From assembly GCA_964016885.1 (NCBI GenBank), contig OZ024743.1, positions 165,416,001 to 165,480,000 of the forward strand: a stretch of 64,000 nucleotides of DNA, written 5' to 3'. A model generated the notes under the pieces. That model ran no database searches. It was not told the origin of the DNA and worked only from the letters and a program-made list of their open reading frames with translations. This DNA comes from Eledone cirrhosa (Eukaryota). A program made the position numbers and the translations under genes. This document shows positions 14,990 through 61,620 of this stretch, piece after piece (the stretch's first letter is position 1; every line of letters begins with the position of its first letter).

Positions 14990-20330
<5,341 letters not shown>

Positions 20331-20976: not shown

Positions 20977-21465
20977 CATATTTTTTCAAAAATTGCAAAG
21001 AATATATTAACTAGGTATACATCCAAAACCTATCTCAGTCTATGATTACATGACACTCTGCAATCCATCTGTATTAGGATTTTAATTTTAAGCCAATTAA
21101 ATTAAATTTTTAGGTTAACCAAATTAAAACCAAATTATAAATATATTTCTAAATTGTACATTAATTAGGTCTATAATATTAAAAAATATTTCTCTGTCAT
21201 TGAATACACGATATTTTGTTATATTTTATCTGTAAAGGAATTTTAATAAAAGGTTAAATAAATTAAAATTAATCTATAAATTAATTTACAAAGTATATAT
21301 TAGTAATATTTAAAAGTTTTTCACAATTTATGATTACACAATATTTTATAATCTCATCTGTAGTAGAATTTTAATTAAATTAAATTTATAGGTTAACTAA
21401 CATTTAAATTAAATTATATATTAATTTCTAAAATAATGTTATTAATTAGGTTTATAATATTTAAA
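20500..21465 (-). repeat. Degenerate ~110-130 bp tandem repeats in the PLE 3' UTR
   Basis: agtagaatattaattataggttaactaaattaaa and ttaggtttataatattt recur at ~20506, 20617, 20729, 20837, 21100, 21361. Confidence 0.75.
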
Positions 21466-23862: not shown

Positions 23863-24567
23863 TGTGATATGGATGATGGACAATTGAAAGAGCTCAACTA
23901 AATGTATATGGGTTTACAAAATCATACATATATATGTATATACATAAATATAAAATTAACACACACATACAGTACAAAAATACGAATATTTCCATGAAAA
24001 TAGGAGCAAAATTATGTAGATAAATCTACCAAGAGTTTACGGTAGTGTCCAATCCGTATGAAGAACTCAATGTAATCCGAATATCATGGAAAGAAGAGAT
24101 GCAATGAAAAATCACTTTCGGTGAAAGATAAACGGAATACAGAGTCAAGATAAAATATTAAAAAAATAATGAATAAAACAATGAAACAGTTCCTTATATT
24201 AAACAAAAAAAGTTCATTATTTAACGATCGTTTCTAGGATATATATGTGTTAGAATTGGCATGTATATTCAACAGATCTATGTACAAAATTATACAAAAT
24301 TATACAAACTATCAAAATTAAATATACATACCAACACATATATATGCCGTCTTCAGAAATAATGAAATATATTTATTGATAATAACAACAATTCAAAATT
24401 ACAGGTCTGTTTGGGAACAGAGTTCAAATTGACCAATGAAAACACAAAAAGTTTATACAGTTAGGTGTGTGTATATATGTAAGTAACTTCGTTCACAGAT
24501 ATGCATAAAAATATATGTTCACATGCATACGCATGCCGAAAAGATGTATGTAAATACAAAAATATAA

Positions 24568-24644: not shown

Positions 24645-25480
<836 letters not shown>

Positions 25481-28589: not shown

Positions 28590-31500
28590 ATACTTGGGGA
28601 GGGTCATATGTCTGTAATATTGTCAGAATTAATAACAGAACACTCACTGTTTGGTTGGTTTTCGCTTTTCGCTTCTGTGTCTTTTATATCGGTAATCTAA
28701 TTTATTCGGTCCTCAATGTTGCCATTGACTGACCAGCGGTCAAAAATAATACAGATACAATATAGACACAAACACATATATATAGTTTATCATAAATCTT
28801 TCGTTGCACATCTGCAACATCGTCAGTGGTGCTATTGTTTCCTCCCATTACATTGTATTTTCTACGCCATCTTTATTTAGTCTGTTTATATATTTATTTA
28901 TTTGTTTATTTTATTTTGTCTTCTTTGCGCATGCGTTTGCGTGTGTGTATAGTGTTTTGTTTGATGTCTGTTCGTGATTAGGTGAATGTGTATTGGTTAA
29001 TGTATTCTATCTTTACTAGTGTGTGTTTATATGTGTTTGTTGTTATTGTGCTTGTGTATGTATTTATTTATTTATTTATCTATTTATTTATTTATTTATA
29101 CTTCATTTAGGTCAGTGTTGTTTGTTTGGGTGTTGTTGTTATTCCATTCATTCTTTCTGTTTAGCCTTGGCCTTCTAAGTTCTATTTCACTGGCCTCTCT
29201 GATTTGCCTATCTGCTGGGTCATTTCTATGTTTAGATATTATTCTAATTTCTATGTTGTCTATGTTGCCGCTGTGTTGTTGTCTGGCATGTTCGTACAGT
29301 ACTGACCCATTTTTTCGTCTTTTTGTTCCCCCCAGTGCTGGTCTATCCTTTCACCTATGCTACGAGCTGTCTCACCTATTAATGTTGTTGTCATGTTTCT
29401 GCAACTATCCTCTGTACATCTTATGCTATAGACTACGTTTCTAGTTTCACAGTTTATTCGGGGGTTTACCTTACATATGATACATTTCCTATTAGTACAG
29501 TGGGTTTTCTTAAAAGGTAGGTTTTTCTGATCAGGGATTTTATGGTGGTTCCTGGCTTTTCTACCACCTTAATCTTTAAGTGGGTCTTTCTCAAGGCCTT
29601 TCTACACTGGTTAGCTAATTTCCCTCCAGGGGTAGCGTCCACAAACATGACACTCTGGTATCTCTGGTTGTCGTACCATGAGGCGGCTTTCCCTATCTTA
29701 TGTCTAGCCCTATCTAAGCTATTCCATGATTTGCTCCTGTATAATGGAAAAATTCCTTTCATGTCCAGTTTTATGAGGGTCTTATACTTCTCCATGGCTC
29801 CTTCGTATACTCTGACTCTGTCTCTTTGGTTGTAGCCAGAGAACTGCATGCGGTTGATGAAGTGTTGGATGTGTCTTTCCATTTCTGTTGGGACGCACAT
29901 GCGGGACACATTCTTCATCACTCGTACCAAATCTGCGATCAGAATATTAAACTTAGCACTACTGGACATTGCTGAGTTTTTGAGTATCAGGTATTTGGAG
30001 GCCATGGGTTTAGCATAGTGTGAGTGGAGAATTTGGGCTAATTAACTAGTGTTAATCCAGAGTTCCGTGTCTAATACAGGTAGTCTATTGTTAGGGTGTT
30101 TGGAAGGGTAGTCGATAGTTACAGTTATACTCTGGTGTATGGAATTGGCTATCTGCTGGATGCTTTCCATTGTGCTACGTTCTAAATCAAACTTGTTAGT
30201 GCTCTCTAGTGGGGATGTTCTTATAACTATATTGCTATCGTCTACGTAACGAGAGTACATGATGAGGTCTATGGAGCTCTCATTAAGGAGATCTTTAAGT
30301 CTCCTTTCCCACCATACCATAAAAAGGTTGGCAACGTCACCAGCTATGCTGACGCCAATGGCTGCTCCCTCATTTTGGGTGTAGATCTTCTCGTTGAACT
30401 TGAATATGTGGCCCTTTAGGGTAGTTTTGATACTAGCCCCTATTGCATCTGCGACCATTTTTCTTACCTGATCATTGTTTTGGGGGTCCGTATAGCTTTG
30501 GTCCACCCAATCCACCTTCCCATGGGAGTCTTTTTAGCCATTGAGGTTATGGTGGGAGGTCTACCTCTTATGAGTCTACTAGGGCAGAAACATCTAAGGT
30601 CATGGCTGTCTAGGTAGTCAGTGTCGTAGGTAAGTCTAAGTAGGAGGCCCAGTTCGTCTGTGTCGACGTCGCAGAACTCCACCTCACTCTCAATGATCAT
30701 CTCCACACATTTTTCCACAGCAAAATCAATGTTAATGGATGGGTACAGTGATACCACATCCATGCTGCCTATTATGCAGTTGGATAGGTTCCTGTTTTTG
30801 TTGCACTCACTGATTCTGCTGAGGAGGTCCTCTGTACTGTCACATACATCTGGGGACATCTTGATTATGGGGCGTATAACCATTGAGAGGAAGTAGGAGA
30901 TCCTGTAGTTGCTAGCTATATTTGCTCCGCATACGGGTCTTGTTGGTGGTCCTGTTGTCGGGTCGTCGATTGTCTTGTGGTCTTTGCGGAGCCCATACAA
31001 GAGTGGTATGCCATTGTTAGACGCCTGGAAGTTGTTGGCAGTGCGTCTGCTTGGCTTTAGGATGTCGGTCCACATCATCATGTGAGCGTTGAGGATTTTC
31101 TCTCTCTCATCATGTTTGCTGTGCAATTTCGCTCGTGTTGGTGATGTGGGGTTGCATAGCCTTGATGTAGTTCGGCATGCTATCTATTGACATCCTACCA
31201 GACTTATCCGTGGGTAGACATACTACCTCACCATCCCTTGTGCGCTGCTTGAGGCTAACCAAACCTTCTACTGGTTTCCTCCCAAGTTGTTGAGCCTCTG
31301 GTCTGCTTTGTCTCTTAGTATACCGGTCTACTATTTGTCTAATCTTATTTCTAGCTATGGTGAACTGTGCCTCTGTCTCGTCATCTATTTGTTGTGGTAT
31401 GCAAACTCTTTTATTAAAGGATAACCGCGTAGGATAGATATTACCCATCTTATATGTTTTGTCAGCTGGGTTGAAAAATAGTTTCTCTAAGGGTTTGTCA

Positions 31501-31712
31501 TTATATCTATCGTCATAGTTGTGTGCGTTGCTATTATTGTTATTATGGTGGTTGTTGTTGTTCCTATCATTAGCATTATTATTATTGTTATGATTGCTAG
31601 ATGTATTGTTGCTGTGATTGTTAGATGTATTGTTGTTATGATTGCTATATATAATATTTAAGTATCGAGAGAGAGAGAAGAAGAGATAGTTATTTGCCAT
31701 TAGCATATGCAA
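28583..31712 (-). mobile_element. Penelope-like element (second clade), frameshifted RT + GIY-YIG, with 3' hammerhead (28790-28830)
   Basis: PTDKSG, LRKDHK, RPVCGAN, SMDVVSLYPSI, GAAIG, YSRYVDD, LPVLD; hand translation of 29300-29460 gives NVVYSIRC...IGETARSIGERIDQH. Confidence 0.9.
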
Positions 31713-31797
31713 AAGGTGATCAATGCTGGTGCCTGCAGTGTTAAATATTAGAAGTGTTAATATCTAGTGGGCGAGAAAATCAGCAGAGCGGATACAC

Positions 31798-34929: not shown

Positions 34930-37900
34930 GTCCTGGGCAAGGCTCCAGTTCTGGAGTTCAGGAGGTGTGGGGAATGTGAAGTTACCTCTTAGTTGTCATA
35001 ACTCCCAGGACTGCTCTGGCCCGGAGTAGTAGTACCTGTTAGGGCCCCATTTATGGGTTAAATAATTACCTTATTCGAGTGGCGCCAGTAAGTTATTGTC
35101 AGCCATTGAAAAGAAATATGGAGAGTCTATCTAACAACACTAGGGTTAGAGCCCCTAACTACACTGTCAAGGAACAGTCTGGTCATTATGACTCTGCTGG
35201 CTTAGAGCCACAGAGAGGGCCAGAGGATGATGGATCAGCTGTCTCTGAGACAAATATAAAGAATGCTATCTTGTCCTGCAGAAGAGCCATCAAAATGAGC
35301 ACTTTGAATGTGAGGACTATTCGGACGCTGGAGAAGAGAGAGGAGTTGGGTCATCCGTTCGAGGAGAGTGATAAGCATATACTTGCTATCCAAGAACACA
35401 GGATCCTACACGATGAGTCCGTGAGGAGTGTGATGATTGGGAAGATGAGCCAGCTCATCATCACATCGGCAGTGAAGAACATGACCAATGCTGCAGTAAG
35501 AGGAGTGGGTTTTGTTTTCAGCACAAAAACCAGTCAATTGGTGAGGGAAATAATACCTGTCTCCAAGCGAGTGTTGAGGGTGACCTTTAATTGTAACCCA
35601 AGACTGACAGTCATCTCAGCCTATAGTCCAACCGAAGGAGACAGTGATGTGAGTGCCGAAGAGCTCCATGAGGAGGTGTGTAGAGCTGTCAACACCACAC
35701 AAGCACACAACATCCTGCTTGTTCTGTGGGACTTCAATGCACATCTGAGTAAGGAGGGCTGTAAAGATCCTTGCTGCTACTTCCGTAACAACACCAACCG
35801 AAATGGAAGACTACTGAGAGACACCCTGCTGGAGGCGAACTTGATAGCGACCAACCTAAGGTTAGGAGGAATCCGGGGAAGATGTGGATCTACATCACAG
35901 ATATGCACCTGTCCAAGTCCAAGATTGATTTCATTCTGGTGAGGAAAAAGTGGCGGAATATAGTTCTGAACACAGAACCATACAAGTATTTCAGTACACT
36001 GGGTAGTGACCACCGATTTGTTATGAGTGAGCTTAAGAAAGAGCAAGGCTCAGCCCCGCAGAGCAATCTATGACTGGGGAACTTTAAAGGAAGATGATAA
36101 GCTACAGGAGAGGTTCACAGTAGAAGTGAGGAACAGGTTGAGTGCTCTGTGTGGAGAGACAGAGGCGAGAGAGATTGGATGGACTGAGGAGATTGTGACG
36201 AGGAGGTACGGGTACTTCACCAATGCAGTGGCGGAAGCAAGTGAGACCCTGGTGCCGAGGATAATGAACAAAAGGAAGCACATCAGTTCTGCAGACCCAA
36301 AAGTGTGTGCAGCCAGAGAACACCTGAAAGCTGCCAAGGACCAATTCTATGCTGATCCTACGGAGGAGAGGAAGGAGACTGTGGAGGTGATGAGGGAAGA
36401 ACTCTGTACCGCTTACACTGAGGCCAGAGAGGAGGCACTGATAGAGAAGATCAGACGTGTGGAGAGAGCGCTTGACAGTTCGGGGTGTAAGGAGAGCTGG
36501 ATGATCATCAACGAGATCATAGGGAAGAAGAGAAGGTGTTCGAGTCAGATCCAGGAACAGGGTCCGAGGATAGGAAGAGGAAATGGCTAGACCATTTTAG
36601 GACCCTACTAGGAGAGCCGCCCTCCACAGCCCAGAGCACTGGGGAGATCAGGCGGCTATTTGAAGAGCTGGATATTGAGACAGAGCCCTTCACCAGAGAG
36701 GAGCTTCAGAGCGTCAAGAAGAAGATCAAGGAGGGCAAGGCCCATGGAGTAGATGGAGTGGCATCAGAGGTGATGAAGAGGTGTGATTTTGATGATATCA
36801 AGCTGGGGTTCTTTAACCAGGCACTGGAGAAAGGAGTTGCCCCAAATCAGTGGAGGATCAGTAACATCGTCCCAGTGTCAAAGAAGGGAGATCTCTCTAA
36901 CACCAACAACTACAGGGGGTCTCACTGACGTCACTTGTGGCAAAGACCCTCAACAGGATGATTCTTAACAGGATCCAGCCCGAGATGGAGAAGAAGCTCA
37001 GGGACAACCAGAACGGCCTCAGTGAGGGAAGGTCAACCACCAGTCACATCCTGATGCTGAGGAGGATATTAGAGGGAGCTAGAGCAAAGTGCCTTCTTGC
37101 TGTCAGGGTTTTCATTGATTTTAGGAAGGCCTTTGATTCTGTGGACTGTCACTTCCTGATGAAGATCTTACAGGCTTATGGAATCCCCAAGAAGATAGTG
37201 GACCTGATATCACTGCTCTACATCAACACCAAAGCCCAAGTCATTACACCTGATGGGATGACAGAGTTCTTTGAGATACTAGCTGGAGTGTTGCAGGGAG
37301 ATACATTGGCTCCCTACCTTTTTATCATCGTAGTGGACGATTGCATGTGCCTTGCACTAGAGAAACACCAGGACTCTGGCTTTACTGTAGCACAGGCTCA
37401 GAGCAAGAGAGTTAAGGCGAAAAGGATATCGGATGCTGATTTTGCCGACGACATAGTTTAGGTTACAAACACAGTGAAGGAGGCAGAGGATATTATGCAG
37501 GAGGTTGAGACTGTGTCGATGAGTGTGGGGCTGAGAATGAATGAGATTAAGACAAAATATCTGGTAGAGAATATTGAGAAGCCAGAAGAGATTATTAATG
37601 TAGGCGGGAAGTCGCTAGAATTGGTTGAGGACTTCCTGTATTTGGGAGCAAAGATGGGGAATACGGAAGATGATATGGTCGAGAGGAAGAGCAAAGACTG
37701 GGCAGCGTGCCACAGCTTGAGATTAGTGTGGAAGTCGGACCTTCGTAAAGACCTGAATATCCGCCTCTTCCTTGCTGTAGTGGAGTCTGTGCTACTGTAC
37801 TGGTCTGAGACTTGGACACTGACCAATAAATTCACTCAGATGGTGGATGGGTGCTACACGAGAATGCTGAGGATGGCTCTGAACATTAATCAGTATACAC

Positions 37901-38047
37901 TGAGGATGAAAGACGCAGAGTTGTATGGAAGCCTCCCAAAAGTCAGCTCAAAAGTGACACAGAGGAGACTGAGGTTAGCTGGACATGCTCACCGACATCC
38001 AGAGTTGACACTGCACTCAATGCTCCTGTGGGAGCCCTTGCACGGAC
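34930..38047 (+). mobile_element. RTE-clade LINE, decayed (APE + RT), 3' end missing
   Basis: TLNVRT, IQEHR, AYSPT, DFNAH, IDFIL, SDH; KAHGVDG, DFRKAFDSV, VLQGDTLAP, DFADD, FLYLG, YWSETW; several frameshifts and stops. Confidence 0.93.
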
Positions 38048-38295
38048 ACAATGCTTGCACTATCTTTAATGCTTATAATATTTCTCCACACACAAACTAT
38101 ATCAATCATATAAAGAATTTGCCACCAGATCTACCAACCTAACACTCTTATTTACCTACCTAAGTGCCTCTACCACACATATCTCTCTGCCACACTATAT
38201 AAACAAGACGCACATGCGTGCCACACATATAACATTTGCACTATATAACCGCTTATCTTCATGTTGTATTTTAACCTATATTTTTGATTTTTGAT

Positions 38296-39057: not shown

Positions 39058-40076
39058 ATTCTTATACTTGGCAAGGGTTATATTGTTGTAATAATATTGC
39101 CAGAAATAATAAGAGAACACACTCACTGTTTGGTTGGTTTTCGCTTCTGTATCTTTTATATCTCCATAGTTAATTTATTTGGCAATCAATAGCCCTTTGA
39201 GAGAATACCCACTGTACAAATAAGAAATGTGTTATATGTAAAATGAACCCCCAGATAAATTGTAAAACTAGAACTGTAGTCTATCGCATAAGATGTACAG
39301 AGGGTACTTGCAGAATCATGACGTACATAGGCGAGACAGCTCGAAGCATAGGAGAAAGAATAGACCAACACCGGGGGGAACTAAAGGAAAAAAAAACGAT
39401 TCAGTAATATATACATGACAGTAATATAGACAACATAGAAATTAAAATAACATCTAAGCTTAGAAATGACTCTACAGGTAAGCAAATCAGAGAAGCAACT
39501 GAGATATAACTAAGAAAACTGAAGTTGAACAGAAAGAACGAATGGAATAACAACAACCATACCCAAACAAACATTACTGACTTAGGGGAAATGTAAATGA
39601 ATAAATAAATAAATAAATAAATAGATATATACACAGGTACAATAACAACAAACACATATAAACACACACTAGTGAACAAGATAGAATGCAAAAATAAAAA
39701 CACATACACTCAAACGCGAACACACACACACACCAAACATTATACACACACGCAAACGCATGCGCAGAGACAGAGACAAGTAGAAATAAATAAATAAAAT
39801 AAAAATGGCGTAGACATTACAATACAATAGGAGGTAACATAATAGTACCACTGATGATGTTGCAGATGTGCAACGAAAGAACTTTGATAGACTATATATA
39901 TATATTTATATCTGTATTTTTAACTGCTGGTCAATCAATGATAAACATTGATTGCCAAATAAATTAACTATGGAGATATAAAATATACAGTAGCGAAAAC
40001 CAACCAAACAGTGAGTATGTCCTGTTATTATTTCTGGCAATATTACAACAATATGACCCTTGCCAAGTATAACAAT
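39058..40076 (+). mobile_element. PLE 3'-end fragment (family of 28583-31712) with inverted terminus; hammerhead 39848-39888
   Basis: GIY-YIG remnant (gtagtctatcgcataagatgt...ataggcgagacagctcg); CTGATGA-tgttgca gatg tgcaac-GAAA; 39058-39187 inverted relative to 39950-40076. Confidence 0.85.
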
Positions 40077-40109
40077 ATATATATATATAAATGTATATAT
40101 ATATACACA

Positions 40110-40277: not shown

Positions 40278-41284
40278 TATACATTATGTTAACACCATAA
40301 CATGCTAACCATCCAAACAGAGACATGCATACACACACACATAACACCTTCTATACTCGAAAACAAAAATCAGAGCTCAATAAACCTTAAGATACGTTAA
40401 TACTCTAACACCTTAACATGCTAACATGCTAACATGCTAACATGCTAGTCCAGCCTCCTGTTATTTTATTTTATTTATAATTAACTCCGTATTCTCACCA
40501 CCAACTACACAAACGAAGATGGGTGAACTGCACTCCGTTGAGTACTCTTCACAATATTACACCAGGATTGACCATACGGAATGACCAGTTCTATCCAGTG
40601 GTGAACCAACAAACCTAAAGAAATAATGCTCCCCCCATAATGTTGAGCACTTCCAGATGTAATATTGAACAGCGGCACTGACTTCAGTGTACAGCTATCG
40701 TCAGCATGGAATTAACTGCTCTACTTACCATTCGGATTTTGGTTGCTCTGTGCTTTATCTGCCGCCACCTGATGCTACTTCCTTGTCGGGAAGAATCCGA
40801 TTCCGACAAAACTCTCCGTATTATACTAAAACATGTATTGTATTGACTGAATTCTCTACTCTATACCTCAGGACTTTTTTGACTCACACTGAATTCGGAG
40901 ACCCGAACTTTACACTAGGTACAACCTGTTACCATTCCATCTCCTCCATCCTCTATATCTATATGTTCAACCTGTATTATCTTACTACAACTTGATCTAT
41001 ATTGATTCTTATTTACCTTTATTAATTTTTTCATTAATGTATATATTTTTAACTTTTTTATTATTTTATTAATGTATTTTTATCAATGTATTCTATCTCT
41101 ATATTTGTATTTTATCTTTGTATCCTGCTTTTATTATTTTTTTGTAACTTTCCTTACTCAGGCCATTATGCACCTTTCATAGCCCCCTACCCACCTAAGA
41201 ACCACACTACTTATAACCCGGACTAACTGGGACTTTAAAATAATTTTGGTCTATTTGCACTTTTCATTGGGTTGCTACCTTCGA

Positions 41285-41445
41285 CATGTGTGGTGGCTTT
41301 TCCCGGCTGCGCGCTGGGCACTCGGAAAGTTCAGCCTTCCTTGAGTGCTTGGAAAAATAAATTTCTCCTCTCTCAGTAAACGAAATTACTCGGAGCGGCT
41401 TGCTTTGCCCAGGTCCCACCGCGCCGCCTGTTTTGGCCGCCATAT
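41285..41445 (+). ncRNA. Conserved GC-rich stem-loop motif (unknown function)
   Basis: tgtggtggc/gccgccata, cgcg/cgcg, ctgggca/tgcccag, gagtg/tactc nested helices around cttggaaaaataaattt...gtaaacgaaa. Confidence 0.6.
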
Positions 41446-42270
41446 TATACCTGTACCTATAAACTCCAGGTTTAGGCATAACTATTAGCTGTATCATGCC
41501 TCTACTGGCACGTAAATAAATCCCTCATGTGTGATTTAATAGTATTCGTTTGGTATAGACGATGGCCTGTCGAAATTGTGGAGTTCCCGCTAACGCTCCC
41601 GAGGCCTGAGGTAGCTACGTTCCTAGAGTACTCGAAAAATTTAAATTCCATTTCTTTCGCTGGACGATACCACTCGAGACTGGCTGACTCATGGTGGGGT
41701 GCGGTGGGGAGGGGGGGGGGCTGGCTGGGACTCCCAATCGAAATCTTTACTCTATATTCCATCCTAATATCTTATCGAGATAAATTTTTTCATATAAGAC
41801 TCTCTCCGTAAGTTCATTAAATAAATAAATCTCGCTACCTTAACCTTCTCTAATAACTTATTTTTTCAATTTATCATTTTTCAATTTAATATTTTTAATT
41901 TAATTTAATTTCATCCTATAACTCGCAACATAAGTTTAACGTTCCAACCTTCGGTTCACACATTATACCATACAAACACCCATTATAGATTCTTTGGAGT
42001 AGCATTTTTTCGCGGCATTTTCTAGCATGAATGTAGTGTGACCCTTACACTGACTTCTTTCTCCCTTTCTTTCTTCCCCTTTTTCTTAGACGGAGAGGTG
42101 GTAGTGCATTATAAGCCTTCACCCCCTCACCAGATATTCATTAGTAGATTCAGTTGCCACCACTTTGAGGGCGACTGGCCGAGCAGCTAGTTGGTCAGTC
42201 GTCCTCTTTGTCTCTGTCTCTGATATTTCGGACTCATGGTTTTTTTTACATATTCCTTTGTTATATTCCA

Positions 42271-42328
42271 ATACCTGATGATATCACCGGATTCATATGG
42301 AACCCGGTCATTGAAATGATCATAGTAT
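42271..42328 (+). ncRNA. Type I hammerhead ribozyme
   Basis: atac-CTGATGA-..accgg..ccggt..-GAAA-tgatca-TA-gtat; predicted cleavage after 42324. Confidence 0.85.
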
Positions 42329-42572
42329 AATCAACTTGTGATGTGACCAATCCTGGTGATTATCTCTCTGACCATATATGGAATTACCCCTTGATAAGTT
42401 CGGCTATTTAAATACCAGAATTAATTTTTAATTCAGTACAGAATTAGCCGTCGAAACGGCTTGAGCTCAGCCGTCGGGGTCTTACTTGTTCCTATTACCC
42501 ACTCTACTACCCTAAGTATTGAGTACTTTGGTGCGTTATGGTCCACCTGGTTCCTTACCACATTTTCTTCGT

Positions 42573-42656: not shown

Positions 42657-42802
<146 letters not shown>

Positions 42803-42869
42803 ATGTGTGTGTGTGTGTTATATATTAGTATTGCGAGGTTTTTGATATGAAATCGTGTGTCGAAACAAA

Positions 42870-44089
<1,220 letters not shown>

Positions 44090-44960: not shown

Positions 44961-44995
<35 letters not shown>

Positions 44996-45047
44996 TATAA
45001 TGAAATGACAGGAGGCTGGATTTGTGTAAATCCTAGAAAGGTTTATT

Positions 45048-45105
45048 ATACTATGATCATTTCAATGACCGGGTTCCGTATGAATCCGGTGATATCATCA
45101 GGTAT
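45048..45105 (-). ncRNA. Type I hammerhead ribozyme
   Basis: Reverse complement differs from the 42271-42328 motif only in the stem II loop. Confidence 0.85.
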
Positions 45106-45664
45106 TCGAAATATAATATGTGAATGTAATAGATAAAATCCATGGGGCTGAAAATCGAGGACCCGAGGGCGACCGCTATTCTGCTCCTTCAACCTCAGCC
45201 GGTCGCCCTCGAGTGACGTGGCTAAAGTTTACAGTGTGCTACTACCGGTCAGATAAACGAAAACAGAAAGGGATGGGAACATAAGTTAGCGTCAATCTCA
45301 TGCCACAAGATAAAAGAAAGAAAGGAAGGAGAGAGAAGAAGGGGGAAGGAAGAAGAAGAGAAGCCAGGGTTAATGTCAGCTATAAGAAGAAAGACAACTA
45401 CTACCGGTCAGATATAGGCAAACAAAAGGGGGAAGGAAGATAAGTCTGCGGGAGGAAGACAGGAAGAGGGGAGAAGAGAAGGAAGAGAAGAGAGAAGTAG
45501 AAAAGTAAGGGTTGATGGCTACAAGAAGGAAGATAGAAAGAAAGAGGAAGAAAGGTCGATATTAATGTCAGACCACAGTCAGGCCAGGAGTGGCGCGAGA
45601 AAATTTTCACAGAGACCCGCATCTTAGCAGAGGTGAATATATTGGGAGTCAGTGTGTTACAATG

Positions 45665-47037
45665 TTTAGACTTATAGGATGAAGTTAAAAAATCAATAAT
45701 CTATATTCAATATTAAAGAGGTTAGAAAATTTAAAGTTAAACAGTTTAACATTTTCAGGTTGATATATCTAATAGTTCCGATTTGTTCTGTAATTTAAAG
45801 GTTAAAACACCGGCCGCGCTCCGGGCCCCAGGGCGAATTAAGCTACGCCGAGTATTTTCATTTACCGAAAGAAGGGGAAATTTATTTTTCCAAGCACTCC
45901 AGGTAAGCCCGTGCGCCAGGGGGCCGGTCGCGCCGCCATTAAAACCCACCCAACAGTCCGACAGAAAGTTGGAACCTTAAAATATTGCTTAACTTTATAG
46001 GATGAAGTTGAAAGAATTCAGAATAACATTATAAAATTAAAGAGTAAGAAGATTGAGAATTGAACAAACAGAAAATTGAAAATTATAATGTGTGAGCGGA
46101 ATTTTGGAACGTTACGTTTTTGTTTAGACTTATAGGATGAAGTTAAAAAATTAATAATCAATATTCAATATTAAATATTAAAGAGGTTAGAAAATTTAAA
46201 GTTCAACAGTTTAACATTTTGAGGTTGATATATCTAATAGTTCCGATTTGTTCTGTAATGTAAAGGTACTATGTGGCGGTTAAAACACCGGCCGCGCTCC
46301 GGGCCCCAGGGCGAATTAAGCTACGCCGAGTATTTTCATTTACCGAAAGAAAGGGAAATTTATTTTTCCAAGCACTCCAGGTAAGCCCGTGCGCCAGGGA
46401 GCTGGTTGCGCCGCCATTAAAACCCACCCAACAGTCCGACAGAAATTTGGAACCTTAAAATATTGCTTAACTTTATAGGATGAAGTTGAAAGAATTCAGA
46501 ATAACATTATAAAATTAAAGAGTAAGAAGATTGAGAATTGAACAAACAGAAAATTGAAAATTATAATGTGTGAGCGGAATTTTGGAACGTTACGTTTTTG
46601 TTTAGACTTATAGGATGAAGTTAAAAAATTAATAATCAATATTCAATATTAAATATTAAAGAGGTTAGAAAATTTAAAGTTCAACAGTTTAACATTTTGA
46701 GGTTGATATATCTAATAGTTCCGATTTGTTCTGTAATGTAAAGGTACTATGTGGCGGTTAAAACACCGGCCGCGCTCCGGGCCCCAGGGCGAATTAAGCT
46801 ACGCCGAGTATTTTCATTTACCGAAAGAAAGGGAAATTTATTTTTCCAAGCACTCCAGGTAAGCCCGTGCGCCAGGGAGCTGGTTGCGCCGCCATTAAAA
46901 CCCACCCAACAGTCCGACAGAAATTTGGAACCTTAAAATATTGCTTAACTTTATAGGATGAAGTTTAAAGAATTCAGAATAACATTATAAAATTAAAGAG
47001 TAAGAAGATTGAGAATTGAACAAACAGAAAATTGAAG
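45665..47037. repeat. Three tandem ~478-bp units, each with the GC-rich stem-loop motif
   Basis: tttagacttataggatgaag at 45665, 46123, 46601; period 478 for units 2 and 3. Confidence 0.95.
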
Positions 47038-47177
47038 ATAAACATTTAAAGAACTTCTATGAGGTTTTGGGTTGCGGGGTTTAATTAAAGAGAGTCTTTT
47101 ATGAAGAAACGTTAATTGTATTATGTAGATCTGTAATTTATCCTAGTGGGATGTAGAGTACGGGATATAGTCGTGTA

Positions 47178-47901
47178 ATATTTATTTTTGTTCTCAGGAG
47201 GAGACATTCTAGTGTCGTGTGCTAATGGGTACAAGTGAGCAAAAGTCCCAATGTGAGGAGTAGAAATACATGGATACATAGAAGTGGAATACGTGAAAGA
47301 GCACATTGGTAAAGCAAAGGTATAAATATATAAACATATCAATATATAGGTATAAATATGTAAATAAACCAACAAGAGTGGTGTTGGAGTAAGATGGAGA
47401 AATCAAGACATAGGAGAATTACAATATAGTTCAGGTTGCAGTATTTATGTTCCCGGGGGGAGACAATCCTGTGTCGTGTGCTAAGGGTACACGCGAGTAA
47501 AAGTCCGAAAAAGGGAAGTAAGAAGTACATGGATGTATAGAGGTTGAGTACGTGGAAAAGCATTAATACAGCAAATAAAGATGTAAAGATATAAATAAAC
47601 AAACAAAAGTCGTTGTCTAGTAAATGGAGAGTTCAAGACAGAGGAGAAATACAATATAGTTCAGGTTGCAGTATTTATGTTCCCAGGGGGATATATTCCA
47701 GTGTCGTGTGCTAAGGGTACACGCGAGTAAAAGTCCGAATAAGGGAAGTAAAAAGTACATGGATGTATAGAAGTAGTATACGTGGAAAAGCATTAATACA
47801 ACAAATAAAGATGTAAAGATATAAATAAACAAACAAGAGTCGTTGTCTATTAAATGGAGAGTTCAAGACACAGGAGAAATACAATATAGTTCAAGTTGCA
47901 G
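47178..47901. repeat. Three tandem ~230-bp units
   Basis: gtgtcgtgtgctaa..gtaca recurs at ~47212, ~47471, ~47701. Confidence 0.9.
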
Positions 47902-48393
47902 TCAGATAATGCATATAGATGTGGAAACAGTGTGTGTTCGAGTCTGGGAATTCAGTGTGAGTTATACATGCCCACAAGTATAGGGTAGCGAATTTAGTTA
48001 ATACAGTGCAGTACAATACATGTTATGGTCTAATCCGTAGAGTTTCGTCGAAGTTCGAATATTCTGAGAGGGAAGTAGCAATGGGCCAGGCGAAAACACC
48101 GAGTAGCCAAAGTTCGAATGGTGGTTAGATATATTAAGTCCCATGCCGCTGTTCATTATTACATTTTGAAGTGCTCAACATTTCAGGAGCATTATTTATT
48201 CAGGTTTGAGGTTCACCACTGTATAGAGCTGGTGTATTCCGTATGGCCAATCGTAATGCAATAATATAGAGAGTACTCAACGTAAAGCAGTTCAACCGTC
48301 TTTGTTTTTGTAGTTGGTGGTGCTATTACGGAGTTAAATATTATAATGAAATGACAGGAGGCTGGATTTGTGTAAATCCTTGAAAGGTTTATT

Positions 48394-48451
48394 ATACTAT
48401 GATCATTTCAATGACCGGGTTCCGTATGAATCCGGTGATATCATCAGGTAT
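48394..48451 (-). ncRNA. Type I hammerhead ribozyme
   Basis: Identical to 45048-45105; 3346 bp apart on the same strand. Confidence 0.85.
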
Positions 48452-48737
48452 TCGAAATATAATACGTGAATGTAATAGATAAAATCCATGGGGCTGAAAA
48501 TCGAGGACCCGAGGGTGACCGCTATTCTGCTCCTTCAACCTCAGCCGGTCGCCCTTTCAAGGATTTACACAAATCCAGCCTCCAGTCATTTCATTATAAT
48601 ATTTAACTCCGTAATAGCACCACCAACTACAAAAACAAAGACGGTGGAACTGCTTTACGTTGAGTACTCTCTATATTATTGCATTACGATTGACCATACG
48701 GAATAGATCAGCTCTATACAGTGGTGAACCTCAAACC

Positions 48738-48833
<96 letters not shown>

Positions 48834-53240: not shown

Positions 53241-53269
53241 AAGTGATGTCATAAAGTTATATCTTTCGA

Positions 53270-56153
53270 TTATTATTATTATTATTGTTCTTTGAGTCTT
53301 AGTCATTGATGTTATTTAACTGGAAAGTTTGTTGAAATGAATATCAAGCTGCTACCTGCAGCCTCAGATATTCAGGACGTATCGGAGGGTTCTTGCTGTT
53401 CCCAGCAAGCATGCCTTTGTAAGTGTTCCAAAAAGCGGGGCTGGACTACTCTTCTTTAACCATCCCTGGAAACTCCTTGAGATAGTACCTAGTGCGCCTA
53501 TGACAATCGGGACCACTTTAACTTCATGGCAGTTCCAAATCCTTTTTACCTCCCACTTTAAGTCCTGGTATCGGTTAATTTTCTCCCTCTCCTTCTCTTG
53601 CACTCTCGTGTCGAATGGGCAGGCCACATCCACAATCAGGCACGATCTTTTTTCCTTTGTCCAAAACCACCGGGTCAGGTCTATTGTGTTTCAGTTTCTT
53701 GTCCGTCTGTATCATAAAATCCCACAGCACCTTCACCTGATCGTTTTCTATCACCGACTCTGGCTTATGCTCATACCACTTCTCAGAATGTGGTAAATTG
53801 TTTACTTTGGATAGGTGCCAGTGGATCACCCTGCCCATCACATCATGTCTCCAGCCTTCATAGTGAGTCTGGGCTAGGTGTTTATACTCGGATACAATGT
53901 GAGTCACAGTCTCCTCTCTCTCTCCACAGATCCTGCACAGTGGGCTAGTCTCCTCCTTGTAAATATGGTGTTTCAGCCACTTCGTTTTGAGGGCCTGCTC
54001 TTGCGCAGCCATTAGCATTCCTTCTGTAGCCTTTTTGAGGTCTCCTCTTTTCAACCAGTTCTATGTCTGTGGACCTCTGAATTCCGTTTTCTCAAAGAAG
54101 GTACAATGAAGGGATTTTTCATGAAGGCTCCTCTTTCTCGTTGTTGTTATTTCCTCCTTGGACATCCCTGGTCTATTGTCCTCTCCTTCAGTACAATTCT
54201 GAGCATTGGCTCCTTACTATCAGTCACGTATTTGTGTGGGTTGTTTTTCTCCATCTGAACACAGTTCTCTATGCTGATAAGATCGCTTCCACCTTCAGAT
54301 CTCCTTAAGTAGAGTCTATCGACATCACTCCTCTTGTGTAACATGTTGTAGATAGTCAATAGCTTCCTAGTCTTCCTATCCATTTCTTTTTGTTCAGCAA
54401 CATTCCATCTCAGAATTCCCGCACTGTACCTAATAATAGACACAGCTCGGGAATTTACTGCACTTATGGCATTCCTACTGTTCAGATGTGACTTTAATAC
54501 GCTCCTTATTCTCCGAATGTATTCAGATCTTATAAACTCCTTCATTTTTTTGTTCTTGATGTCATCAGCCTCCAGAACACCCAAATACTTGTATCCTTCT
54601 TCAGTGTCAATTTCCTTTATCATCTCACCTGTTGGTACCTGGATTCCGTTGCTTCTGCTAATTTACCCCTTTTCATCACAAAGACTCCGGACTTACTAAT
54701 ACCAAATTGCATACATATATCATTGCTGAAAATACGGACAGTGTCAACAAGCACATCCAACTCCTTCTCACTCTTCCCGAAGAGCTTAAGATCGTCCATG
54801 AAGAGGAGGTGATTGATGGTAAGCTCTCCCTTTCCCAACTTGTATCCTGCTCTCACTTTTCGCAGTATATTGGTCAGGGGCATCAAAGCAAGGACAAACA
54901 ACAGAGGGGACACACTATCTCCCTGGAAGATACCTCTCTTGATCTTCACGCCTCCCAAGGATTCTCCAACTGATGTTAACTCTGTTTTCCAGGACTTCAT
55001 ACTTTTGCTCAACAACTGTCTGATGTTATCTGCCACCCTGAAGATCTCTAGGCTTTTGGTGATCCAAGAATGAGGCACCATGTCAAATGCCTTTTTGTAG
55101 TCTATTCATCCCATGGCAAGACCAGTGTGTCTCCTCTTGCAATTCCTCATTACCATCTTATCAATAGGTAACTGGTCTTTTGTACCACGGGACTTCTTTC
55201 GGCATCCTTTCTGTTCGTCCGGTAACAAGTTGTTTGTGTGCAGGTGATGGTAGATTTCCTCAGACACAATGCTTGTCAACAGTTTCCACATTACGGACAG
55301 ACATGTGATAGGTCTATAGTTGGTAACATCATTACCCTTGATTCGGTCTTTCATTACCAGAACTGTGGTACCTTTTGTCAACCACTCTGGTACCTAACCT
55401 GACATCAAGCAGTCATTGAACATGGTTGTCAGTTTCGGGCGGAGGGATGTTATATTTATGATCCAATACCCCTGCACACCATCTGGGTCTGGTGATTTCC
55501 AGTTGGTTAGTTCTTTTGCCTGCCCCTTAAGAGTTTCAACTGTGATACTCAAATCAGTTTGTTGGTGTGCCTATTCACTAATCTCCTTTTGTACTGTCTC
55601 AATCCACACTGCCTGGTCATTATGTTTAACATCCTGCTCCCATATTCCTCTCCAGAATGTCTTAGTTTGTTCCGCCTCAGGGATCAAGTCGTTGCCTCTT
55701 TCTTTCCCTTCAAGCTGTCCAAACAGCATCTTCTGGTTGTTGTCAAACATGAGGCTCTGTCTATACTGACTGACTCTGCTCTAGTATCGCCTAATTTTTG
55801 CACTCTTTGCTACAATACGTTGCTTAAGTTCCTCTATGATAATATTTAGCATTTTCCTCTTAGTTTTGTACTTTATTTCCAATCTATTTTTAGTGTCTAT
55901 GTTTTTTAGTGTCCCATTCAGTAGGGACTCAAGCTTTCCAATGTCATTTCCTGATTTTACCATTCAGTCGTTTCTTCCACCAAGGTTCCGATCTTTCTTT
56001 TTTGTTGTTTCCTCTCGCTTTTATGCCAAGTAATTTCCTCACCGCATTTGCTGTTGCTTTGAGAATATTGTTGCACTGGTGAAGGCTCCTGCCTCAAGGT
56101 ATGGGATGACTTTGTTTACCTTAGCTGTTGTTTCTTTTAACTTTTTCCTGTCT
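53270..56153 (-). mobile_element. R4/Dong-type non-LTR retrotransposon, 5'-truncated, frameshifted
   Basis: YRPITCL, QKGC, IFQGDS, FMDD, YKYLG, CRIC..H, RHD, RPD; (AAT)n tail. Confidence 0.93.
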
Positions 56154-56159
56154 ACTGTT

Positions 56160-56990
56160 ACTATTGTTATTATTATTATTATTATTATTTGCATTTATCT
56201 TGCTTTATGTTTATACGAGTTATTACCAAGTCACAACCAGTGACCTCAAGAGACAACAAGGTCCGCCATGTTCAAGAAAGAACATACATATTCACACATG
56301 CATCCTTAGTGTTTAGACTTGTGATGTACTCATATTGACAGGATCTTCCTTAGTATATGGGCAGTTCCCATTAGTACTATCTTTTGTATTTCTCCTATAC
56401 GCGGGTTTCCTGGGATTTGCGATAAGTAGTCGTTAGACCCCTTAGGTATCATTCCCAGAGCGCCTACAACCACTGGTATTGTTTTAGTTCTCAATTTCCA
56501 CATTTTTCCAATTTCTATCTCCAGGTCCTTATACTTGCTCAATTTTTCAAATGTTTTTATAGATACATTCTTGTCTATTGGAACAGACATATCAATTAGC
56601 AGGCATACCCTCCTTTGAAAGTCCTTCAATATTATATCAGGTTTATTTGCATCTATTTTTCGGTCTGTTTGGATGCTAAAGTTCCACAAGATTGAGATGT
56701 GATCTTTTTCAAGTATGGGAGGTGGTTGATGCTCCCACCAATTCTTTTGATGGGGCAGGTCAAAATGCTTACACATTATCCAATGTATGTATTGTGCAGC
56801 TCTGTTATGCCTGTTTAGGTATTCGGTTGGAGCTATAGGACTGCACATTGAAATTATATGGTCAATGGTCTCTGGTTGTTTTTTGCATACACGGCATAAT
56901 GGGCTGCACCCATTTTTTATTATGTTGGCTTGGTAATTTTTTGTTGGCAGACACTGATCTTGTGCCGATATAATCAGTCCTTCAGTCTTT
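56160..56990 (-). mobile_element. 3' fragment of a second R4/Dong-type family (RLE domain, ORF ends 56330)
   Basis: KTEGLIISAQDQ, CRVC..HIISMC, RHN, KPDI..D, K..KY; own 3' UTR and (AAT)n tail. Confidence 0.92.
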
Positions 56991-56999
56991 CTTCTTCTT

Positions 57000-59900
57000 A
57001 TTATTATTATTATGGTTATTGTTATTCCTTGAATCTCAGTCATTGATGTTGGTTAACTGGAAAGTCCGTTGGAATGAATATCAAGCCACTACCTGCAGCC
57101 TCAGATATTCAGGACGTATCGGAGGGTTCTTGCTGTTCCAAGCAAGCATGCCTTTTGAAGCGTTCCAAAAAGCGTGAAGGGGCCGATTTTCTTTAACCAT
57201 CCCTGGAAACTTTTGGAGATAGTCCCCAGTGCGCCTATGACAATCGGGATCACTTTTACTTCATGGCAGTTCCAAATCCTTTTCACCTCCCACTTTAGGT
57301 CCTGGTATCGGTTAATTTTCTCCCTCTCCTTCTCTTGCACTCTCGTGTCGAACGGGCAGGCCACATCCACAATCAGACACGATCTTCTTTCTTTGTCCAC
57401 AACCACCAGGTCAGGTCTATTGTGTTCCAGTTTTTTGTCCGTCTGTATCCTAAAATCCCACAGCACCTTCACCTGATTGTTCTCCATCACCGCCTCCGGC
57501 CTATGCTCATACCATTTCTCAGAATGTGGTAAATTGTTTACTTTGCACAGGTGCCAGTGGATCACCCTGCCCATCACATCGTGTCTCCAGCCCTTATAGT
57601 GGGTCTGGGCTAGGTGTTTACACTCGGACACAATGTGAGCCACAGTCTCCTCTCTCTCTCCACAGATCCTGCACAGTGGGCTAGCCTCCTCCTTGTAAAT
57701 ATGGTGCTTCAACCACTTCGTTTTGAGGGCCTGCTCCTGCGCAGCCATTAGCATTCCTTCTGTAGCCTTTTTGAGGTCTCCTCTTCTCAACCAGTTCCAT
57801 GTCTGTGGATCTCTAAATTCAGTTTTCTCAAAGAAGGTACTATGAAGGGATTTTCCCTTAAGGCTGCTCTTCCTCCTTGATGTTATTTCCTCCTTGGACA
57901 TCCCCTGGCCTACTGTCCCCTCCTTCAGTACAGCTTTGAGCATTGGCTCCTTACTATAGGTCACGTATTTGTATAGGTTGTTTTTCTTCATCTGAACACA
58001 GTCCTCTATGCTGATAAGACCTCTTCCACCCTCAGATCTCCTTAGGTAGAGTCTATCGACATCACTCCTCTTGTGTAACATGTTGTAGATAGTCAATAGC
58101 TTCCTAGTCTTCCTATCCATTTCTTTTTGTTCAGCAACATTCCATCTCAGAATTCCCGCACTGTACCTAATAATAGACACAGCTCGGGAATTTACTGCGC
58201 TTATGGCATTTCTGCTGTTCAGATGTGACTTCAATACGCTCCTTACTCTCCGAATGTATTCAGTTCTTAACAATTCCTTCATTTTTTTTGTTCTTTATGC
58301 CATCAGCCTCCAGAACGCCCAAATACTTGTATCCTTCCTCAGAGTCAATTTCCTTTATCATCTCACCTGTTGGTATCTGGATCCCGCTACTTCTGCTCAA
58401 CCTACCCCTCCTCATCACAATGACTCCACATTTACCAATACCAAACTGGATACATATATCACTGCTGAAAATACGGACAGCGTCAACAAGCACATCCAAC
58501 TCCTTCTGACTTTTCCCGAAGAGCTTAAGATCGTCCATGAAGAGGAGGTGATTGATGGTAAGCTCTCCCCTTCCCAACTTGTATCCTGCTCTCACTTTTC
58601 GCAGCATAATGGTCAAGGGCATTAGGGCAAGGACAAACAACAGAGGGGACAGGCTATCTCCCTGGAAGATACCTCTCTTGATCTTCACGCTTCCCAAGGA
58701 TACTCCAGTTGATGTCAACTCTGTCTCCCAGGACCCCATACTCCTGCCTAGCAACTGTCTGATGTTATCTGCCACCCTGAAGATCTCCAGGCTTTTGGTG
58801 ATCCAGGAATGAGGCACCATGTCAAATGCCTTTCTGTAGTCTATCCATCCCATGGCAAGATCAGTGTGTCTCCTCCTGCAATTCCCCATTACCATCTTAT
58901 CAATAAGCAACTGGTCCTTTGTACCACGTGACTTCTTTCGGCATCCTTTCTGTTCGTCCGGCAACAAGTTGTTTGTGTGGAGGTGATGGTAGATTTCCTC
59001 AGACACAATGCTCGTCAACAGTTTCCACATTACGGGCAGACATGTGATAGGTCTATAGTTGGTAACATCATTACCCTTGATTCGGTCTTTCATTATCAGA
59101 ACTGTGGTACCTTTTGTCAACCACTCTGGCACCTCACCCGACACCAAGCAGTCATTGAACATGGCCGTCAGCTTCGGGTGGAGGGATGTTAAATGTTTAA
59201 TCCAATACCCCTGCACACCATCTGGGCCTGGTGATTTCCAGTTGGTTAGTTTTTTGGCTTGCCCCTTAAGAGTTTCAACTGTGATACTCAAATCAGTCTG
59301 TTGCTGTGCCTGCTCACCGATCTCCCTCTGTACTGTCTCAATCCACCCTGCCTGGGCATTGTGTCCAACATCCTGCTCCCATATTCCTCTCCAGAATGTT
59401 TTAGCTTGTTCCGCCCCAGGGATCAAGTCGTTGCCTCTTTCTTTCCCCTCAAGCTGTCCAAACAGCATCTTCTGGTTGTTGTCGAATATGCGGTTCTGTT
59501 TATACTGACTGACTCTGTTCTCGTATCGCCTGATTTTGGCACTCTTTGCTACAATGCGTTGCTTCAATTCCTCTATGATAATATTTAGCTTTTTACTCCT
59601 AGTTTTGTATTTTATTTCCAGTCTATTTTTAGTGCCTATGTTTTTTAGTGTCCCATTCAGTAGTGACTCAAGCTTTCCTATGTCATTTCTCATTTCCCCG
59701 ATTTGCCCACTCAGTCGCTTCTTCCACCACGGCTCTGCTCTTTCTTGTCTGTTGTTTCCTCTCGCTTTTATACCAAGTAGTTTCCTCACCGTATTTTCTG
59801 TTGCTTTGAGGATATTGTTGCACTGGTGAAGGCTCCTCGCCTCAAGGTATGGGATGACTTTGTTTACCTTAGCTGTTGTTTCTTTTAACTTTTTCCTGTC

Positions 59901-61550
59901 TACAAATCTTAGGTTCATAGGTCTCCCACTATCATTGTTCAATTCATCTACCACTAAATTTAGGATGTCAACCGAATCTTGTCCTAGCCCGTCAGCATTC
60001 ATCTCCTCAGTGGCCGTATCTCTGTTCCAGGTATTATTTATCTCAGTATTCAGATCATTGTCTGCTTCGGGTGGTTCCTCCGTTCTCAGGACCTCTTCAC
60101 CTTCATTTCCCACTGGCTCGCTTGTCTGGCGTACTACACCCGCCATCTCCAAGCCATTCTCTCTGCTCAGTTCCTCCAGTTCCAGCTCGCTTATCCATCC
60201 ATTAGTTCTTATTACCCGAGCCTACCCGGCCAATTTTTGTTCATCTAATTTAAATAAACCAATCTCGTTCCAGATGTTATGCATCCGTCTCCTGTAGCCC
60301 CTCTCCTTGGGGTTACTTTTCAGGTAACATTGCATAACAGTTCTATTCAATTCTTTCGTCCAGTTGGTTCTGGCCCCTTTCCTTCTTCTCCTTCCTCCAA
60401 CATCAGCAGTATTTGGTTGACAGTCAGGTTCCTGCTGCTGAGCCAGGGGGCACCTGTTGGGTGAGAGTCTGTCACATGACGTTCTAGACTCCATTTCACC
60501 GTTATTCGAACTGTTTATGTTCGATATTTAAACACTCTTATCGAGGATTGGCAAATGTATGGTTACATATCCATCTGTGGTTCCACCATTCCACTTGGCC
60601 CTTGTGTGGCATTATCACCACGCTGTATACGAACACACATAAACAAACAAACACACAGGCAGAAAGGGCCCCAAAAATGAATAAGCATAAGTTTCATTGT
60701 AATGTAGTGTTCGAATGTCTGACCTAGTTTTTGTTTTTTAAGTTTTAGTTTTTCCCCCCTCTTCTCTGTCCGTCCGCCTGCTTCTCTCTTCATTCTTATT
60801 TTCTTTACGTTTTTTGTTTTTTTTTTGTTTGTTTTTGTTTTTGTTTTTCTCTGTTTGTTTTTCTCGTTTTTTTCTGTTGTTGCTGTGCTGCTTTGGTTTT
60901 GTTGTTTATTTTTTCTTTTTTCTTTTGAGTCTATCTATATATTTTGATGCCTTCCTCTTTTTTAGCAGTAGGGATTCTATAATGTGGTGGCAGCAGCCAG
61001 CTAAAAGAAGAAGTGGGAGACTGGCGGCGGTAGCGATACTGAGACAGTGGCGGTGGTGATGTCGATACCGAGGCAGTGGTGGCGGTGATGTGACCGTATT
61101 ACTGTAGTGATGGTGCTGTAGCGGTGGCAGCAGTGAAGGAGTGAAGGGGTGGTGGCGGCGGTGATGGGATAATGGTTGTAATGATGGCCGTAGTGATCGG
61201 TGGTGGTTTAGTGTACACAGGTGATAGGGTGGGTGGTGTATCTAGTTTCTGGTGTTGGTGAGTTTGGCTGTTCTATATAGTGTATACAGAGGAGGAGGGG
61301 GGGGTTCTTCTTCCATTTATAGCCATTTTCTTTTTTGGATATACAGTGTACAATACAAAGTTGAATATTTGAATATTTGAGCCTTATAACAATATATTTT
61401 GGGTCCGAATTTTTTGGGGCTCAAGCCGGGTGCTTTACGTAGCATTTGTACTAAGAGTTGTTATTTCACAAATGGTTTAAATATGTTAAAAATTCAAAAC
61501 TTACGGGAGCGATTTCATGACCTCCGTCACCTCGTGCGTCTTCTGCCCTT
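57000..61550 (-). mobile_element. Full-length-like R4/Dong-type retrotransposon
   Basis: Leader, single long ORF region 57101-60494, short 3' UTR, bounded by (AAT)/(AAG) microsatellites. Confidence 0.9.
57101..60494 (-). pseudogene. RT + CCHC + restriction-like (PD..D) endonuclease, ~1130 codons, one stop and one frameshift
   Basis: ORFs 60222..60494 and 58260..60152 are in frame across a TAG; frameshift in a homopolymer run near 58285 to 57101..58282; WKSPGPDG, QGDSLSP, FMDD, RPDLVVVD. Confidence 0.95.
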
Positions 61551-61572
61551 CTTCTTCTTCTTCTTCTTCTTC

Positions 61573-61619
<47 letters not shown>

Positions 61620-61620
61620 G
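61549..61620. repeat. (TTC)n(TTA)n microsatellite between tandem Dong-type copies
   Basis: Direct inspection. Confidence 0.95.

Follow-up and report, generated by a model that had tools for sequence, protein, structure and literature searches.

The two elements and their surroundings

The window, by which the whole 64-kb stretch analysed here is meant, carries two repeat elements, A and B, whose features are collected in Table 1. The 3.0-Gb host genome may be that of a mollusc, going by its general traits and by a named relative of one neighbouring protein (41%). As judged from the sequence pattern, both elements bear the same type I hammerhead, and its 20-base 5' part has 5870 exact matches in the genome. 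Its palindromic helix III and the U.U at helix II have been described for animal retrozyme hammerheads (PMC7229834). A scan of the window with Rfam at gathering thresholds did not score this hammerhead. Element B possesses direct terminal repeats of 217 bp (44993-45209 and 48339-48555, 98.6% alike). Among 279 distinct 3' ends after the hammerhead, 125 fall at +100-119 and 111 at +250-259; two such discrete ends mark the reverse transcriptase (RT) start sites in one reconstituted element (PMC11167929), suggesting that those of the present element lie at about +110 and +250. Copies are mostly 5'-truncated, often inverted and inserted in (TA)n, as described for Penelope-like elements (PLEs; PMC8557442), and the tandem and inverted 5'-truncated arrangements match membership of this group. 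The longest ATG frame is 94 codons in element A and 56-117 codons in seven elements, and a tblastn search of these seven against 121 PLE-type proteins gave no match at E 0.1. Given the hammerhead, the two 3' ends, the truncated or inverted copies in (TA)n and the lack of a frame, the carrier is, on sequence evidence, a non-autonomous, non-coding Penelope-like element of 1.9-3.3 kb with thousands of copies.

No autonomous PLE sharing the pseudo-LTR was found among 60 hammerhead-picked loci with 1.5-kb flanks, out of at least 5870 copies. At locus L069 a PLE ORF immediately precedes a B unit, but it was rejected as the parent element, as that junction occurs in one of 30 copies of the ORF end. 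In L069:1-1620 a B unit truncated at its 5' end has, in this single instance, been joined to the 3' UTR of an unrelated autonomous PLE, which hints at a template jump. A GC-rich hairpin with a conserved stem and a rewritten loop lies 70-110 nt upstream of the hammerhead, in element B at 45166-45209 (-), and many 5' truncations and inversions are located near it. Element B also contains a 230-bp tandem duplication (47353-47902) upstream of its motif units. About 165 nt 3' of the hammerhead, older subfamilies (loci L093 and L095) carry a splice-donor-like GGGTAAGT or GGGTGAGT that was lost in families A and B, and pyrimidine tracts ending in AG are found between the motif described below and the hammerhead in B (45290-45540 (-)). 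The motif may lie in a former or retained intron.

Further mobile sequences were observed in the window. An open Penelope-like RT frame of 823 codons with a GIY-YIG-type C-terminal end and no Pfam match lies at 21442-23913 (-), with a hammerhead of similar build near it at 19240 (-). Its family has at least 150 copies that are 97-99% identical at the 3' end and is therefore very young and abundant; it possibly belongs to the Hydra clade. Broken frames of a second, different Penelope-like RT (29466-31763 (-)) adjoin a hammerhead at 28826 (-), and related repeats are present at 39194-40105 and 42743-43572. Hammerhead-like cores of several distinct repeat families, often as inverted pairs, occur at 24927, 25256, 33341, 33954, 39851, 43109, 44708 and 50370, and LINE-type endonuclease and RT fragments, some duplicated, at 4955-10374 (+), 35043-38142 (+) and 53269-62615 (-).

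Table 1. Elements A and B, their motif units and associated features in the 64-kb window.
Feature	Position	Strand	Remarks
Element A monomer, non-coding, Penelope-type ends	40447..42335	+	period 1889 nt; joint 42335 to 40447
Unit a, element A (copy A), predicted irregular rod bearing the apex	41288..41445	+	MFE -64.7, z -3.98; model match 41317-41417
Conserved apex, unit a, element A	41343..41391	+	predicted closing stem GAGTG/TACTC, hairpin 1 GGAAA-AATAAA-TTTC(T)C, pyrimidine linker, hairpin 2
Unit b, element A, diverged paralogue 283 nt downstream of unit a	41548..41755	+	88.3 bits; apex 41626-41675
GC-rich hairpin upstream of element A hammerhead	42167..42206	+	stem conserved, loop variable between subfamilies
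Type I hammerhead, element A	42271..42328	+	ATAC-CTGATGA-stem II-GAAA-TGATCA-TA-GTAT; palindromic helix III, U.U at helix II base
Element B	44993..48555	-	hammerhead-to-hammerhead 3346 nt; inverted piece 48553-48747
Downstream type I hammerhead, element B	45048..45105	-	sequence pattern
478-bp tandem array multiplying unit a in element B	45663..47036		no strand; 2.9 copies, 96% matches
Element B unit, third copy	45769..45976	-	apex 45899-45850; 3' base of rod partly deleted
Element B unit, second copy	46255..46440	-	apex 46377-46328
Element B unit, first copy	46733..46918	-	apex 46855-46806; z -0.53
Upstream type I hammerhead, element B	48394..48451	-	sequence pattern

The motif units and their predicted fold

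Blocks of GAGTGCTTGGAAAAATAAATTT start at 41343 (+), 45899 (-), 46377 (-) and 46855 (-) in the window, and blocks of GTAAA(C/T)GAAA(T/A)TACTCGG at 41376 (+), 45865 (-), 46343 (-) and 46821 (-). Both are thus present as described in the first-pass annotation, which had reported a conserved core common to copy A and three repeats of B. A 22-base core gave 894 exact matches (474 + 420) in the 3-Gb genome and its reversed control none, and a looser 34-place apex pattern gave 1224 matches, again with none in the control; a chance origin of the core was dismissed in view of the 894 matches versus 0 and the z score of copy A (-3.98). All four copies compared in that annotation exist, but the three in B are units of one 478-bp array and 96% alike, so that two independent sequences, not four, had been available. 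A fifth unit, unit b of element A, had been overlooked and was recovered at E 5e-19 by a model built from genome copies. The apex of unit a in the window carries two private changes, in hairpin 2: at 41372 and 41375 it departs from the majority letter found in public runs (X1 and X2, both contigs from a single sample).

An apex profile applied to the fetched loci gave 320 distinct units, of which 274 fell into 15 clusters with at least four members and 46 into smaller clusters. Each element carries one to three copies of the motif, most lineages keeping two; the spacing between units is about 280-500 nt, and the next hammerhead follows about 470-1300 nt downstream. All 14 hammerhead-picked copies with homology reaching at least 790 nt upstream carry it (65 placements, one being the window's own). 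In an unrooted tree the majorities fall into two groups, a (upstream) and b (downstream), and therefore one duplication preceded the subfamilies; unit b is present in most family-A loci, and lineage B lost b and re-multiplied a. Across 12 subfamily majorities the identity is 87% in the apex and 63% and 60% in the two arms, and the loops and linkers of the apex are as conserved as its stems. The arms, previously taken to be re-written, do differ, but they are homologous and drifting rather than wholly replaced (76% between A and B over 41339-41456; 60-63% between the 12 subfamilies). Some of the pairings proposed for B are limited to part of the copies: accggcc is found only in the copy at 45805, and that copy lacks ccgcca.

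Searches of Rfam 15 gave no match to the window at gathering thresholds and, at E up to 10, solely microsatellite and chance matches; with three single units as queries, also at E up to 10, the best score was HTH-XRE at E 0.22, followed by weaker ones. ARAGORN predicted no tRNAs. The first-pass annotation, too, had not recognised the motif as tRNA, snRNA, SECIS, 7SL or a known ribozyme. A tRNA- or 5S-derived SINE was rejected, as neither scan revealed a tRNA or 5S head, as was the SRP RNA/Alu domain, for which no covariance model matched three single units and two elements at E up to 10. SECIS has no Rfam match and the element no ORF, and known small self-cleaving ribozymes were rejected for want of both an Rfam match and a truncation hotspot. 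The hairpin-2 loop lacks the two conserved U of P6.1 in telomerase CR4/5. Likenesses to 5S rRNA loop E flanks, 7SL, HDV-like and pistol ribozymes, CTE and the type II IRES J-K domain were considered, but none of these scored in the Rfam scans; loop E requires AGUA opposite GAA, and the two do not occur together in any subfamily. The motif was found in no viral contigs and no phages. One metagenome match and two bacterial-genome matches represent two distinct places, one in an apparent coding frame, with at most 7.6 bits in the model, and were taken as chance. Among the papers listed by full-text literature searches, none dealt with a domain of this kind in a Penelope-like element.

The unit is predicted to form an irregular rod, comprising 160-210 nt, that ends in a three-way junction, in which a closing stem GAGUG/UACUC stands on UUCC/GGAA and is followed by hairpin 1 (GGAAA-6 nt-UUUCC), a 5-nt pyrimidine-rich linker and hairpin 2 (UUUCG-5 nt-CGAAA). 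This junction is the minimum free energy structure in 13 of the 15 cluster majorities; in the two exceptions, both family A unit a, a rival hairpin competes. A second ACTCGGA has arisen in the 5' arm of family A (41317-41349 (+)); by pairing with the 5' strand of the apex it can displace the junction, which might be either a weakness or a switch. Pairing probabilities are at least 0.82 for the closing stem in nine of 12 majorities and at least 0.83 for hairpin 1 in 11 of 12; for hairpin 2, values of 0.82, 0.85, 0.88, 0.98 and 0.33 were obtained in five majorities. The hairpin-2 loops are GUAAA, GUAGA, CUAGA, CUGGA and CUAGG.

Fold stability differs between copies. For copy A, none of 200 shuffles was as stable (z -3.98), and the best copy reached z -6.0 in sense versus -1.8 in antisense, whereas a B copy (z -0.53) and the window's unit b (z -0.45) are no stabler than shuffles. 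The earlier strand argument, that G-U pairs favour the strand of the hammerhead, fails when copy A is taken alone, as its antisense scored -4.27, but sense is favoured in 11 of 12 majorities, four of them by at most 0.2 z, with seven of 12 reaching z -2 (30 shuffles each). The apex alone gave z -0.2 to -2.1, no stabler than shuffles, and folds alike on both strands.

As for the arms, cognate pairs are stabler than swapped ones in 56 of 66 pairs, which come from related sequences and are not independent, and 78% and 83% of cells are paired in two alignments versus 33-50% for slid registers, each structure being taken from one aligned sequence. Arm variants shared between copies destabilise less than private ones (0.48 vs 0.98 kcal/mol, p 0.011), and a keep-versus-break test on the arms gave p 0.06. 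Covariation, proposed earlier as a check on the fold, is weak: pairs changed on both sides number 16 of 79, reached by 117 of 500 shuffles, and 7 of 61 in the second alignment, reached by 184 of 500, and so exceed shuffles in neither, and the covariation score was reached by one of 500 shuffles in one alignment and 243 of 500 in the other. RNAalifold recovers the apex but little of the rod in both alignments. The junction has no covariation support because the apex pairs are nearly invariant. Taken together, the rod has moderate support, with slipping registers, and the junction stands as a prediction of the folding models. No A-to-I editing footprint was seen in the arms (A>G 0.0062 vs T>C 0.0070).

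Selection on the apex and its possible role

Non-CpG differences between the 12 majorities amount to 12% in the apex, 41% in the arms and 46% outside. Variants of individual copies were split into private ones, which arose at or after insertion, and ones shared by at least three copies, which passed through a source copy; loci L061-L104, picked by the exact core, were left out. Private variants occur at nearly equal rates per non-CpG site in the apex (1.4%), the arms (1.7%) and outside (1.7%), and in 10 clusters distinct private non-CpG variants per site number 0.299, 0.377 and 0.370 in apex, arms and outer sequence, respectively. The corresponding values for distinct variants shared by at least three copies are 0.016, 0.084 and 0.088 (10 clusters, non-CpG). 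Shared versus private counts are 7 versus 133 in the apex and 96 versus 430 in the arms (Fisher p 4e-5, 10 clusters), and the deficit of shared variants in the apex recurs when a units (p 0.002) and b units (p 0.005) are each analysed on their own; these p values are optimistic, given that some clusters mix lineages and changes may count twice, and the units were picked with the apex profile. With private rates near equal and shared variants five-fold rarer in the apex, the data point to purifying selection in source copies that is relaxed after insertion, suggesting from the variant pattern that the apex is needed for retrotransposition and not for the host. The claim of a functional, undescribed motif in a Penelope-like context is upheld by this selection and by the absence of an Rfam match. 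We conclude that the motif is real, selected and undescribed within Rfam and the literature searched; a Dfam or Repbase consensus, or the consensus set of PMC8557442, may hold the element.

Could the apex instead have no function and be conserved by a low mutation rate, gene conversion or copy selection? Total divergence from the majority is about halved in the apex (2.4% vs 5.3%), the units were chosen by the apex profile, and a scan of family A alone in 50-nt segments, with CpG sites included and copies picked by likeness to the region, gave no apex dip (shared/private 0.23 vs 0.05-0.27 for neighbours). The near-equal private rates and five-fold rarer shared variants nevertheless render this explanation quite improbable, and units a and b keep distinct apex variants and so are not homogenised. 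Fainter still is the prospect that the apex is a new small self-cleaving ribozyme. Such an activity would fit the invariant 50-nt core, the predicted three-way junction and an element that already uses a ribozyme, but no Rfam ribozyme matches, and a cut at the apex would sever the template. Moreover, 5' truncations are scattered over the unit, no position having more than two, and their density within the rod does not exceed that beyond it; this lack of a hotspot in the motif argues against self-cleavage, and hence against the catalytic role suggested in the first-pass annotation, and does not point to any start site. Stalling of the RT or a cut at the rod was likewise rejected, with 5' ends three before, six within and 17 beyond the rod, about equal per base.

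The remaining two alternatives are each equally compatible with selection in source copies. A DNA-level internal promoter or enhancer, with inverted GGAAA...TTTCC sites needed for source-copy transcription and an incidental fold, would be consistent with apex helices that lack covariation and fold alike on both strands, and tandem duplication is common for enhancers. On the other hand, double-stranded DNA has no need of three nested inverted repeats and arms that stay complementary, the sense strand is favoured in 11 of 12 majorities, and 5' ends show no pile-up near the unit; we thus regard a promoter as improbable. Somewhat better placed, if still unlikely, is direct binding of the junction to the partner Penelope RT/endonuclease, at an additional high-affinity site separate from those where initiation occurs, like CR4/5-TERT. 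PLE RTs are sister to TERT (PMC8557442), the predicted three-way geometry has a short hairpin with a 5-nt loop, and a predicted dimeric PLE protein (PMC11167929) would suit paired units. Against it, the element's 3' ends at +110 and +250 after the hammerhead lie about 1 kb from the motif. The motif is also absent in 30 loci round the 3' end of the window's autonomous family and in its full window copy, as well as in 29 of 30 loci of a second autonomous family, the remaining one being the one-off fusion junction; neither of the families scanned shares the hammerhead of this element. The RT-recruiting role proposed earlier is therefore possible but not favoured.

The explanation that we tentatively rank highest, ahead of RT binding, a DNA promoter, no function and a ribozyme in that order, is that the apex is a cis part of a non-coding Penelope-like element that docks a host protein and so routes or protects the RNA for a partner Penelope protein. 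Docking to a host protein is favoured over direct RT binding because the RT start sites are about 1 kb away and the motif is absent from the scanned stretches of the two autonomous families. In the anole element, both the required RNA and the site of initiation have been located immediately 3' of the hammerhead (PMC11167929). A precedent is provided by Alu-SRP9/14, where a host-protein docking domain of 46 nt is needed by a non-autonomous element (PMC11760393). Since loops and linkers are as fixed as the stems and the arms drift, the likely mode is recognition of a specific sequence presented on a scaffold. In this scheme the 50-base apex, kept by selection in retrotransposing copies, would cap a long RNA rod as a three-way junction; that it acts as RNA, that it binds a protein and that this protein comes from the host rather than the element are all inferred. 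Docking would route or protect the parasite RNA, which the partner Penelope protein would then copy. The step served might be association with ribosomes, by analogy with the Alu domain, or export, or the stabilisation of a hammerhead-cut RNA that has no cap. Avidity would rise with each duplication of the unit, although one unit is enough in some lineages. Protein recognition, as suggested in the first-pass annotation, is the best, if tentative, reading.

A broader proposal is possible, though we would lean against it: the apex could represent a new class of RNA domain, a protein-docking three-way junction of the Penelope parasites' own, convergent with the Alu domain or telomerase CR4/5, whose duplication serves avidity and whose presence in cis is needed for capture of the partner RT. 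If so, Penelope-like RNAs would have their first internal cis element beyond hammerhead and tail, which would also be a handle on template choice in trans by Penelope RTs. Little is settled about the way in which Penelope-like elements select their RNA, or in which hammerhead-bearing parasites make use of their proteins; one element has been reconstituted in vitro (PMC11167929). The present family offers a 50-base target with the genetic signature of a requirement for copying. Its natural variants differ in apex type (a or b), in the number of units (one to three) and in the rod, which has two lengths, and its copies number in the thousands. A host factor as ligand would imply an independent invention of the Alu strategy, while an RT would bear on RNA-junction recognition by telomerase-related RTs.

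Comparison with known systems

Non-LTR retrozymes and non-autonomous PLEs (PMC7229834; 10.64898/2026.07.22.740005; MRC1 in PMC8557442) share with this element its non-coding nature, the type I hammerhead with palindromic helix III and U.U, and tandem copies, and in both cases the dependence on PLE proteins is inferred. However, retrozymes measure 51-972 bp in a search limited to a 1000-bp period (10.64898/2026.07.22.740005), whereas the monomers here are 1889 and 3346 nt and thus lie outside the strict definition of non-LTR retrozymes as tandem monomers below 1 kb. Unlike retrozyme arrays, the copies here are mostly 5'-truncated and inverted, and they carry an internal, duplicated and selected domain, of which the retrozyme passages cited make no mention. 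With Penelope-like elements (PMC8557442; PMC11167929) are shared pseudo-LTRs, inverted 5'-truncated copies, two discrete 3' ends and (TA)n insertion; in contrast to the elements described in those sources, the present one is without an ORF and its 3' ends are about 140 nt apart rather than 30-40 bp.

Telomerase RNA CR4/5 with P6.1 (PMC8480181) likewise combines a junction with a short hairpin near a telomerase-related RT. The hairpin-2 loop here has one U in place of the two conserved U of P6.1, and no telomerase family matches; protostome telomerase RNAs are themselves described as lacking P6.1 (PMC8480181). Compared with Alu SINEs, the element shows no similarity to SRP RNA in Rfam and has neither a tRNA head nor a poly(A) tail, and its predicted junction sits at the tip of a rod in mid-element. 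The Alu domain (PMC11760393) is nonetheless an analogue, being a structured domain of about 50 nt that is duplicated and needed in cis by a non-autonomous element.
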